From contig OX597823.1 in NCBI GenBank assembly GCA_951406725.2, positions 110,484,001 through 110,548,000 of the forward strand: a stretch of DNA of 64,000 bases, in the 5' to 3' direction. The notes under the pieces were generated by a model. The model made no database searches, was not told the origin of the DNA, and saw only the letters and a list, made by a program, of their open reading frames with translations. Below are positions 4,725-60,486 of this stretch, one piece after another; position 1 is the stretch's first letter, and the number at the start of each line of letters is the position of its first letter. Both the position numbers and the translations under genes were made by a program. This DNA comes from Octopus vulgaris (Eukaryota).

Positions 4725-4756
<32 letters not shown>

Positions 4757-8560: not shown

Positions 8561-10267
8561 TGTTTTGAACACATTTTTTATATTTAAATATATCAAGCAA
8601 ATACCAAAATGGACTGGTGTATTATTGACAATATAAATAAGGGATAACTAACACAACTTTTCCTGATCCCTTGCCCTGCATGACCCAATCTCCTATTCAT
8701 TTCCAGCCTTAGCTGCCATTTTTCTGAGCCCTTCTTTGACTGGTGCAATTCAGTAGCATCCCTTATTAAATAGGCCTGATGTACTAATAGCTTTATCACT
8801 TAGACTCACTCTTTTCATCTCATTCTATAATGAAGACATATTCATGTCTTCATACATTATAACATTCATTTCTATTTTTTTATACATGTTTTATGTCCCA
8901 CATGTTTTGTTTTGCCACTTCCATGTTAGCCCACATGGGGAATATAAAAACAGATCTCATTCTATAATGCTTGAGGACAGCCAATTTCATTGATACCAAT
9001 CTTATTTTCTTCTGCAGGCTTTGTTTACCTTTTCTTTTGGTCAGTATTTTTCTGTGGCATGCAGTTTTCCTCTTCACTATTTTTCAGTTTATCTTGCTCA
9101 CAATTCCAGTCAATTTGTTTTCTAGCATCCCGTCTTTCCACTGTTTTTGGTTCACTGATTCTTTTTGACTTTTTCTTCAGGAGTTCATAGAAGATTTCTC
9201 AGTCAAGAAGCTTGAAACAGAATACATTTTTTTTTCTATGGCAACCTGTTATTGTGTTTTTAAGGTGACAAGAAAGTCTGGTTACAGATAGACACTCATG
9301 TAACTGTTCTATATCATTGCAGAAATCGCAGAAAATTCTTAAATAATTTCACAGATTTTTTGCTTTTCATTTTACTTGTTCAAAATTAAATCAAACTTTG
9401 CACAGACCAAATTTACTTATATATAATATAAAGTCATAGAATTAAAAAAAAATACTCAAGTAAACCATGCAATGATTTATATAAGGAAAACAAAAAAGTA
9501 TCTCACATGATATCGATTTCATTTGAATTCTCAACTTTATAAAAGTATTAAAACATTTGCATAAAATTAGCATCAAACATTAACGTTCAAACAAATCAAT
9601 ATCTTTTTTTACACTATCAATATCAATATATTATTTCTTTATACAAATTTAAAATTTGTTAATCTTCCGGCTCCTATTAAAAAATTTATAATCCACATAA
9701 AATTTTTGCCTCTTTAAAAATATCTGCTCTTAATAGAAATTTATATTCATATAAACATATTTTGAAGCCCTTAAAAAATTTTATGCCCTTACTAAAAACT
9801 AAAACTTTTTCCAACCCCTCAAAATATGTTATACTCCTAAACATTTTATGCATCTCCATAAAAATTTTGTGCCTCCTTGATAATTTTCAGCCCCTCCTAA
9901 AATATTTACATTCACTGTTAATTCAAGATCTACACAGTTAATAAAAAATATTAAATCGTCAGAAAAAAATGTTATCAAGTAGTCTATCAAATTCCACACG
10001 ATAATGTTAAATAATCAAAAGTAAATTTTAAGGCAGACGCAATTTTCTAAGCCTCAATGACGAAGAGAAAGTTTATTTTTTAATTTTTCTTTGAGATGTC
10101 TGTTTATGAGTTTTTGAGTGAACACATACACATGCATGATTTCTAACATGCATAAATATATACTTTATTTACATAGAAACATACATGCATAAGCGCATCT
10201 ATGCCTGCATCTATACGTACATTATGCATGAATTCATACATATATATATACATGCATACATGCACAC

Positions 10268-56975: not shown

Positions 56976-58317
56976 TTACAAGTGGCATTCTATGGTTTGT
57001 TCTGAAGAGAAATTATCATTCTGTATAAATGGTAAACTAGAAGAAACCCTGCATTTGTCTTCAAGTGATTGTATTTACTCAGTTACATTACCTACTAAGA
57101 ATAGCAGCCAAATATCCTGTCCCCTCAAATTGCATCATACCTTTTAAAGAAACAACACACTGGACAATGTATTCCTATAATATAAAAATGATGAGGATGT
57201 TCATGGTAGGAACGTATTTGATAATAGATTTGCTCAAGCAAAGTTGTCCTGTGACTAAACAACTATTCCTTTCTTTGACTACAGAAGCCATTTGAATTAA
57301 CAAAACAGAATAATAGATTAACAAGGAAGAATAAAATGGAACTTGAAAGATTTGATTAGAATTTTTTTTTACATAACGTTTTTTAGTGGCATTTTATGTG
57401 CATTAAGATATGTGCTGACAGAGATGAATGAGAACGCAAAAGGTACAAAAGGGGACAAATATATATTTTGGTAAAATAGCCTTCAAGTTGCAATAAAACT
57501 ACAAAATTTAGAATCAAAACAAGAAGAAAATTATTCTCTCTACAGAATATGAGTGACAGGTAAAAAGACTGCCAATAAATAGACTTGTTTTCTCCCCCTT
57601 TATGGTGTTTTTTTAGAATCAGTATTTTTATGGTTTACCTATCTGGCCATGAATACTGCTATAAATCCAACTGACACTGCAAAAATGCCATACCATTATG
57701 AGAATATTACATTTACCAAAAACAGATAGCTCAGCTTACATGCATAAAGCATAAATAAAATATATAACTTAATATCAAATATGAAATATCAGTTTCAGTT
57801 ACAGTTTCCAAATAGATTCTCCATTCAGGATATGTATAGCAGGATAAAGGCTAAAAGATGTCCCAAAAGTTATAAGTGTTAGGGATTTAAGGAGTAAAAC
57901 CTCAATTCTGATTTTGAGGAGTAGACTGGCCAGAAAATGGTTAAACTATGCAACAGTGTGAAAAGTATAATGCAGTATCACTAGCATAAACATGAATGGG
58001 TTCTTAAATACCCCTAGAAACGTTTAAGCAAATGAAATTACACCTGTAATGGAAAGGGAAAGAAAAATCAGCGACAATTAATATAAAAAAGACAAGGGAG
58101 ATAAATCTGCAATTTTCTGAACTACATTTCGATCTGATTCAGCAACATTTAGGTTTACACATACAGACTTTAGAATGACGGAGATGTACTCGCATAGCAA
58201 GTAATTTGATCTGAGATCGTGTGCTGAAACAAAAACAATTGCAGCGTGGAAAGTGTTTGTAAGCTATTTAAGAAACACACAAAAGCCGTTCGAATTCACT
58301 TCAACATTTGAGTTTAA

Positions 58318-58367
58318 TTTGTCAAAATATTTTCGTCACTAAAATCCGCGACCTGTTCACTGACAAA
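58318..58367 (-). ncRNA. Variant minimal hammerhead (G3:C8 swap), left-arm copy
   Basis: Minus strand: TTTGTCA-GTGAACA-G-GTCG-cggattttag-TGAC-GAAA-ATAT-TT-TGACAAA. Confidence 0.6.
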
Positions 58368-58389
58368 AATCCGTGGTACAGCATAGATT

Positions 58390-58441
58390 TTTGTCAGTGA
58401 ACAGGTCGAGGATCTTAAAGCGACGAAAATATTTTGACAAA
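58390..58441 (+). ncRNA. Variant minimal hammerhead (G3:C8 swap), right-arm copy
   Basis: TTTGTCA-GTGAACA-G-GTCG-aggatcttaaag-CGAC-GAAA-ATAT-TT-TGACAAA. 7-bp stem I, 4-bp stem II, palindromic stem III AATATT. Confidence 0.65.
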
Positions 58442-59357
58442 TTAAACTTAAATGTTGAAGTGAATCGAACGGCTTTTGTGTGTTTCTTAAATGGCTTACA
58501 AACACCTTCCACGCTGCAATTGACTTTAGAATGACATGGAATATATTGGCACTGGCAATCACATATATCCATGCCAAATCCTGAATTCTCATGATGTTTT
58601 GGGGAAAAGACACAGAATGATTCAAAGTGTTTTCTGCTTGTTTATTTGCTAACTAGTCTTTTACTTTCCAGGACTTACAAAGAATAAGTCCTGGGGTTGA
58701 TTTGCTTGACTAAAGGCAGTGCTCCAGCATGGCCACAGTCAAATGACTGAAACAAGTAAAAGAGTAAAAGAGTAATGAGTATGCGACACACTAGTAATTA
58801 TCAGATTCCCATGAGACGAGAACTCTGGCAGTAATTTTTAACTCTACATGTTCAAAATCAGACTAATGGGCCACTGTTTGTTCAAAAGGTATGTCAAGAT
58901 TCCGATAGGTAAAAAAATCTCATGACATGCTTTTTTAAAATTTAAAACGTTTTTGGGCAACATTGGGTCTTTATTGTTTCTGTCCAAGTGGCACTAGCAA
59001 ATAAGGCTTTGCTACAATTGCCAAACCAATTCACTTTTACAGTCGTTATGTAGAGAATAATTCACCCATCATTTCAACTACATTTGCTGTAATCATTTTG
59101 ATACGGTCCTTCGATAATTTACCAGTAACACCAGTTGTCTTAAGACTTGGGATACTTGTACTTCGTGGTCCTTGTTACTACACTCAGCTTGGTGAATCAC
59201 AACTTCTGGGAGATAACTATCAATGAAAATGTCATTGATAATGATACTGAAGACCAATGAGTAGTTTGAAGTATATAGCAAATATGTCATCCTATTAGCA
59301 TTGTCCACTTTGGTGGCCTCCAAAGTTTTCTTCATGAAGTTTTATAAAGATGTTTTA

Positions 59358-59879: not shown

Positions 59880-60486
59880 GGGAGCTGGCAGAATCGTTAG
59901 CACACCGGGTGAAATGCTTAATGGTATTTTGTCTGCTGTTACGTTCTGAGGTTCTGAGTTCAAATTCCGCCGAGGTCGACTTTACCTTTCAGCCTTCTGG
60001 GGTCGATTAAATAAGTACCAGTTTCTGGGGTCGATATAATCAACTTAATCCATTTGTCTGTCCTTGTTTGTTCCCTCTATGTATTTAGGCCTTTGTGGGT
60101 AGTAAAGAAATAGGTATTTTGTCTGCTGTTACGTTCTGAGGTTCTGAGTTCAAATTCCGCCGAGGTCGACTTTACCTTTCAGCCTTCTGGGGTCGATTAA
60201 ATAAGTACCAGTTACTGGGGTCGATATAATCAACTTAATCCATTTGTCTGTCCTTGTTTGTTCCCTCTATGTATTTAGGCCCTTGTGGGTAGTAAAGAAA
60301 TAGGTATTTCGTCTGCTGTTACGTTCTGAGGTTCTGAGTTCAAATTCCGCCGAGGTCGACTTTGCCTTTCATCCTTTCAGGGTCAATTAAATAAGTACCA
60401 GTTACGCTCTGGGGTCAATGTAATTGACTTAATCTCTTTGTCCTTGCTTGTACCCTCTGTTTATCCCCCTGTGGGCAAGAAAGAAA
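59880..60486 (+). mobile_element. SINE family B tandem trimer
   Basis: One head followed by units restarting at GGTATTT (60113 and 60303). Confidence 0.85.

Follow-up and report, generated by a model that had tools for sequence, protein, structure and literature searches.

The window analysed here, a stretch of 64,000 nucleotides of Octopus vulgaris DNA (contig OX597823.1, positions 110,484,001 to 110,548,000), holds a foldback insert at 58166..58535. We propose, with a probability of about 0.8, that this insert is a short and dead head-to-head insertion of the pseudo-long terminal repeat (pseudo-LTR) of an autonomous Penelope-like element (PLE), and that each of its arms carries a putative hammerhead ribozyme homolog whose core pair between positions 3 and 8 is G3-C8. 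That the foldback is an ordinary PLE insertion product can be said with high confidence.

Two pseudo-LTR copies in one foldback

An exact 14-bp direct repeat (58166-58179 and 58522-58535) flanks 342 bases, in which inverted arms of 136 bp (58236-58371 and 58386-58522) show a mutual complementarity of 94-96%, and the whole insert is predicted to form one hairpin of -219.6 kcal/mol (z -27.6), a stability reached by 0 of 100 shuffles. A first, sequence-only reading had described this duplication, arms of ~136 bp and two outward-facing GUGAACA motifs, all of which are borne out by repeat, fold and motif searches. It had also called the insert non-coding, which is not so in origin because both arms carry the first codons of a PLE open reading frame (ORF), 10 in the short arm and 30 in the long one. 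Indeed, the arms match at ~94% the tandem parent copy L153 of the 2.8-Gb host genome (L-numbers are labels of genomic copies). No other piece of the element was found in the window beyond one weak 78-base match. The features of the insert are as follows.

58166..58179, no strand: left target-site duplication, 14 bp, from repeat comparison
58180..58235, minus: PLE 'tail', on a single arm only, with the ORF to about codon 30; its terminus is the distal copying start
58236..58375, minus: long arm, a pseudo-LTR copy with 93.6% identity (tail included) to L153
58265..58267, minus: ORF start codon, decayed to ATA in the window copy
58318..58367, minus: minimal type I hammerhead motif, G3 at 58360 and C8 at 58355, predicted cut between 58325 and 58324
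58372..58385, no strand: inner junction of both 5' ends, variable from copy to copy; neither arm quite reaches the inferred start site here, a few bases being absent
58386..58522, plus: short arm, a pseudo-LTR copy without tail, 94.0% identity to L153; its terminus is the proximal copying start
58390..58441, plus: minimal type I hammerhead motif, G3 at 58397, C8 at 58402, extra G at 58404, predicted cut after 58434
58491..58522, plus: PLE ORF start codon and first 10 codons
58522..58535, no strand: right target-site duplication, 14 bp, its first base common to the arm end

On the upstream side of some copies one meets a microsatellite-rich stretch, beyond which an ORF ends. In L061, a 530-residue open frame ends ~1.1 kb before the motif, and a protein search with this frame gave 7,557 candidates, 150 of which were scored at 81-100% identity; in the long open frame of L099, a GIY-YIG domain (PF01541, E 1.6e-5, above the cut-off) lies at residues 889-979 of the 999 tested. 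The parent ORF shows the reverse transcriptase (RT) motifs YVDD, GGAIG and DKSG and a C-x3-C-x2-C linker; the Pfam RT profile gave no match to the parent ORF proteins, and homologs of the parent protein are labelled as RT-domain proteins. Within L153, a pseudo-LTR motif at 4742 is followed by the ORF from 4834, which starts 92 bases after G3, continues through the tail and has a stop and a frameshift further on, and a second pseudo-LTR motif stands at 9003; an inverted truncated copy precedes this tandem. The proposed link to Penelope is supported, the unit being the pseudo-LTR of an RT/GIY-YIG element, and the adjoining RT/GIY-YIG ORF that was to be looked for in longer copies is found in L099, L061 and L153. 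These three copies have the single RT and GIY-YIG ORF of endonuclease-containing (EN+) PLEs, to which are added the tandem pseudo-LTRs of L153, inverted 5'-truncated copies with a one-ended tail (42 of 49 pairs, described below) and target duplications of variable length (14 bp here, 12-14 bp elsewhere).

The domain order and zinc-finger motifs of the parent fit Neptune/Nematis-type PLEs, compared by description in Craig et al. 2021 (PMC8557442; here and below, published systems are compared through portions of the papers concerned), the protein tree having been built without named Neptune or Nematis reference elements. Shared traits are a C-terminal GIY-YIG domain with two internal cysteines, a CX2-5CxxC linker before it, (TA)n bias, and tandem as well as inverted truncated copies with a one-ended tail, whereas the tail here exceeds the 30-40 bp given there. 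The endonuclease is C-terminal and not N-terminal as in Naiad/Chlamys, and the traits of the Hydra clade (CCHH cysteines absent, CxCX5C linker) do not apply. The closest database relative (57%) bears the source label Octopus vulgaris, and the others stand at 30-55%, one of them labelled as a sea cucumber protein.

A DNA search with the insert gave 2,065 candidates, and the 40 that were scored are all near full length with 91-100% identity. Across the 30 copies fetched, each outer end is fixed, yet the two are unequal, with ~56-60 extra bases (the tail) on one arm, and the centre varies from copy to copy; target sites are AT-rich or (TA)n, with duplications of 12-14 bp where readable, many being unreadable inside (TA)n. 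To avoid length bias, 87 loci were chosen by short patterns from the first matches listed (three duplicates were dropped). Head-to-head pairs make up 49 of them, namely 42 long/short, 6 long/other and 1 other/short, with neither long/long nor short/short pairs; the other 38 are solos (27 long, 8 short and 3 other), a count that takes in a few long copies. At these loci, the 3' ends fall into two groups, at unit positions 148-156 and 206-211, and the start of the more truncated arm ranges over unit positions 2-140. The long-arm/short-arm layout is also seen at kilobase scale (L099, L062). Two cases stand apart: L019 and G000:C23:17654925-17655313 are overlapping foldbacks with tails on both sides, the sole long/long case among the 30 length-selected copies, and in L066 the inner junction has grown to four tandem 64-base units derived from the 5' half of the motif, which suggests repeated template jumps.

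The long inverted arms and target duplication could also be produced by a miniature inverted-repeat transposable element (MITE) or foldback transposon whose hammerhead-like motif arose by chance. We reject this origin as highly improbable, since the ends are asymmetric and the parent element is a PLE (L153), which settles the point that the sequence-only reading had itself set against its proposal; moreover, the duplication length varies within 12-14 bp where readable, 38 of the 87 loci are solos, and the parent encodes RT and GIY-YIG and no transposase. A non-LTR retrozyme was likewise set aside, the copies being head-to-head or solo and not head-to-tail tandems. Such retrozymes (bioRxiv 10.64898/2026.07.22.740005) are also short hammerhead-bearing repeats related to PLE pseudo-LTRs, but they form head-to-tail arrays, whereas the repeats here occur as head-to-head pairs or solos, in colinearity with a parent that bears an ORF.

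The earlier proposal of a separate non-autonomous foldback family is not supported, because an autonomous element has the unit as its pseudo-LTR and inner junctions are individual to each foldback. In its PLE-dependent form, a short transcribed foldback or solo unit would serve as master and be copied in trans, which we consider unlikely. Contig depth falls several hundred- to thousand-fold past the tail, short units thus far outnumbering ORF sequence, the 40 near-full-length foldbacks are 91-100% identical, and a few inner junctions recur (L042, L238, L244), which speaks for such a master and against independent insertion products. However, junctions and second-arm length vary widely (starts 2-140), the unit runs colinear with the pseudo-LTR of the autonomous element and on into the ORF, and an equivalent layout exists with kilobase arms. 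Solo short units may nevertheless serve as templates.

The G3-C8 core and its sister families

Read outward, each arm gives stem I, GUGAACA, G, stem II, GAAA, AUAU, UU and stem I again, with U17 at 58434 in the plus motif and at 58325 in the minus motif. The core 16-mer occurs twice in the window, at 58349-58364 (minus) and 58393-58408 (plus), against a chance expectation of 0.20 at 3 mismatches. A core bordered by stems I and II, together with GAAA and a UH site, is what a type I hammerhead shows; motif alignment and folding support the minimal topology with palindromic stem III that the first reading had described, and its cut after 58434 stands as a prediction from motif numbering. The motif reads GUGAACA and not the canonical CUGANGA, and positions 3 and 8 keep a Watson-Crick pair as G-C. 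An Rfam scan of the insert, with 14 rows at E up to 10, included no hammerhead model, most rows being microRNA-hairpin models and all under gathering scores.

In predicted minimum-energy structures, the minus-arm monomer adopts the hammerhead fold with stems I and II, whereas misfolding is seen for the plus-arm monomer. Differences between the two motifs had been held to fall in loop II or to keep pairing, which fails for the A at 58409, as it mismatches the fifth stem II pair of the plus motif. It had further been expected that transcription from either strand would include a motif: a motif is indeed present, but in read-through RNA of either strand the hairpin buries both, with hammerhead stem probabilities of 0.0 against 0.94 and 0.996 in the monomer. 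Inactivity is therefore predicted for the window copy, since its motif is paired with the antisense arm.

Across the whole genome, the G3-C8 pattern gave 6,911 matches (a head-to-head pair contributing two) and its reversed control 6. A sister family (54% identity over 814 residues) carries, at the equivalent place upstream of the homologous N-terminus, a motif with a C3-G8 core, and shares with the G3-C8 motif the extra G, stem II ends, GAAA, a four-base stem III and the U-U/U-C site; its pattern gave 5,390 matches (control 4), and among the first 100 listed, ~26 are fully canonical and ~74 have C9 (hand count). A third family, 53% identical, carries U3-A8 (3,002 matches, control 0), this core being present in 92 of the first 100 matches listed (hand count). 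The ORFs of the three families are 53-60% identical and form one clade with a Shimodaira-Hasegawa-like approximate likelihood ratio test (SH-aLRT) value of 100 in a quick tree of 57 rows. Within the C3-G8 group, L149-L151, L157 and L191-L194 represent a young family with many near-identical 1,310-residue ORFs and C9, and older relatives keep A9; a motif of the third family, with a shorter palindromic stem III and the U3-A8 core, lies at L163:7500-7560. Note that two families, B (C9) and F (short stem I), escaped our initial descriptor and came to light by sequence reading.

Since sister families carry C3-G8 or U3-A8 at the equivalent place, the compensatory swap claimed from the window alone holds as a change in a homologous hammerhead, and sequence comparison makes it highly probable that we are dealing with a genuine hammerhead homolog in which the compensatory swap is natural. 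In an alignment of 12 motifs from the G-C and C-G families, two-sided changes occur in 7 of 13 pairs and U4, G5, A6, G12, A13, A14, A15.1 and U16.1 are invariant; 89.7% of cells are paired, a level reached by 0 of 500 shuffles and compared with 22-52% in slid controls, although the motifs are related and were selected by core pattern, so that this figure is supportive and not a probability. A further caution is that the 3-8 change in these 12 rows is a single event. From the same sequences, the 3-8 pair is likely to be under selection. The core letters are also present in loose contig ends from three of four sequencing runs, each of a differently coded organism. In a metagenome scan for G3-C8 motifs, none of the 80 matches taken from at least 119 had a paired stem III, and one had 4 or more stem I pairs with some extra stem II pairing; these matches were treated as chance.

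Our motif resembles the minimal hammerheads of metazoan PLEs (Cervera and De la Pena 2014, PMC4209133) in being of type I within a pseudo-LTR, with one nucleotide between 9 and 10.1, a G10.1-C11.1 pair, a palindromic stem III and opposite-strand pairs. The extra G after A9 (58404) noted by the sequence-only reading is real, but an extra nucleotide at this place was already described there, with consensus H where G is found here. A U3-A8 covariant was likewise described there; in contrast, the sections consulted do not mention a G3-C8 core, and the three core states within one clade are particular to our families. Natural 3-8 covariation is also known from hammerhead core variants (Perreault et al. 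2011, PMC3088659), where, in the portion consulted, U3-A8 alone is named and not the G3-C8 found here. Provisionally, we regard a natural G3-C8 hammerhead core as new. The portions of the literature searched gave engineered mutants only, and outside their scope stand Luense et al. 2017, reportedly about dimeric variants of PLE hammerheads, and also Przybilski and Hammann 2007, said to concern 3-8 exchanges.

Proposed copying of the element's 5' end

Among 83 leader-reaching arms, 80 end within 6 bases of the leader on its upstream side, and 34 end at one site, where 27 have an untemplated G in place of the parental C; at internal truncation points, G is found in 5 of 41. The start site resembles an initiator element. 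In full-length L1 insertions, such an extra G marks a copied cap (PMC11702581), and it is likely, judging from these ends, that the untemplated G here stems from copying of an RNA cap. The short units probably represent the entire 5' end of a capped RNA, and one left uncut, since the copies extend ~60 bases past the predicted cut. Two points weigh against the cap: the start-site sample is confined to leader-reaching arms, and a branch-point-like motif with YAG precedes the start site, so that the extra G could instead come from a 3-base first exon. No upstream exon sequence shared between copies was found in 100 listed junctions of 916, nor in the 83 fetched arms, though an exon of just 3 bases may still be involved. 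At L061:8125-8162, the branch-point-like motif, a pyrimidine run and YAG are kept across subfamilies (as CAG or TAG), which could, by analogy with Drosophila Penelope, represent a 3' splice site.

Among 27 typed pairs, 5 have different loop II alleles in their two arms, suggesting that at least some events drew on two template molecules. An inverted truncated copy and a one-ended tail are frequent in PLE insertions (PMC8557442). As for the enzyme, the purified protein of the Poseidon element PAc from green anole cuts and extends both strands and has two internal starts in the 5' ORF, the tail being the stretch between them (Frangieh et al. 2024, PMC11167929). PAc further shares AT-rich targets, an uncut RNA template and a partly active core when engineered to C3G/G8C. 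In contrast, its canonical core overlaps the start codon, whereas our motif lies 92 bases upstream of the ATG, with a tail of ~56-60 bases and a natural swap, and our protein has a linker zinc finger that Penelope/Poseidon are described as lacking.

We propose that staggered nicks would give the 14-bp duplication, and that the RT-endonuclease would copy the first 150 and 210 bases of the RNA from both nicked target strands. Reverse transcription would begin at two internal sites of the 5' ORF, the tail being the interval between them, and copying would run to or near the capped 5' end of the uncut RNA; the two complementary DNAs would then be joined 5' to 5'.

Two other repeats lie to the right of the insert in the window. 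The segment 58673-58770 is a piece of another abundant repeat that also adjoins many loci (e.g., L056), and which presumably resembles a repeat of the short interspersed nuclear element type. At 59923-60405, a 190-base unit is repeated 2.5 times with 96% identity and is followed by long simple-repeat arrays to ~62750.

Activity of the motif and its meaning

Cleavage by the G3-C8 motif under some physiological condition has, from the sequences at hand, about an even chance. A fuller reading, at a little under even odds, is that of an active natural G3-C8 hammerhead: C-G, U-A and G-C would all have been fixed in one clade and genome, with G3/G8 as a possible stepping stone, and the short head-to-head inserts, in their thousands, would be traces of an RT dimer that copies two capped, uncut transcripts from opposite nicks, as the mixed loop II alleles hint. 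Under our main proposal, active masters would owe the 3-8 pair to selection, and cleavage by the motif would be slow, relying either on dimer formation via the AAUAUU palindrome or on assistance by the element protein, and taking place at a different step from the copying that produces inserts. For PAc, the ribozyme cuts only with protein (PMC11167929).

A somewhat doubtful but serious alternative keeps the PLE origin and takes the motif as a dead or near-dead relic, its fold serving protein binding, translation control or nothing, with the swap reached through a tolerated G3/G8. Several observations support it and weigh against activity. The base at position 8 is not C in 441 copies, and the first 100 listed have 50 T, 33 G and 17 A; at position 3, 257 copies lack G, with C in 14 of the first 100 listed, 3 of these being from a canonical family (hand counts). 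Because of this G8 excess and of L105, where both arms have G8, the sequences point to the spread of a minor G3/G8 master, and therefore an unpaired core could still spread; 7 of 9 G3/G8 copies stand on an older subfamily background, which also holds C8. In addition, the young sister family has lost A9 for C, and dead copies decay equally at core and non-core sites, so that per-copy invariance proves little. Copies also extend 5' beyond the cut site, as expected of templates left uncut, and hammerhead mutants of PAc have no effect on insertion in vitro (PMC11167929), the ribozyme being dispensable there. Finally, minimal PLE hammerheads are weak even as dimers (PMC4209133), and the engineered C3G/G8C hammerhead gives partial rescue only (PMC11167929).

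Against the relic stand the three Watson-Crick states of the 3-8 pair, each fixed in thousands of copies, and the eight core positions invariant across 12 motifs, of which catalytic geometry is the best account. G3/G8 is a possible intermediate or a reversion. Unpaired G3/G8 copies (L105, L115, L156, L259, L261, L264, L265, L277, L278 and L281) are too many for chance decay. No run listed as containing the unit is on record as RNA; as for the four sequencing runs, their contigs cover the unit, and ends and strand are not readable from them, which makes them neutral as to expression.

Altogether, the C3G/G8C hammerhead, known as a laboratory rescue mutant, has here a putative natural version fixed in thousands of copies, which beside C-G and U-A sisters of one clade provides comparative evidence for selection on the 3-8 pair in PLE hammerheads. 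Whole families escape descriptors based on CUGANGA, a point of relevance to PLE groups in which hammerheads have been reported absent. Moreover, the two fixed ends (one per arm), the cap-like G and the mixed alleles lend support from within a genome to the internal-initiation model that was derived in vitro.
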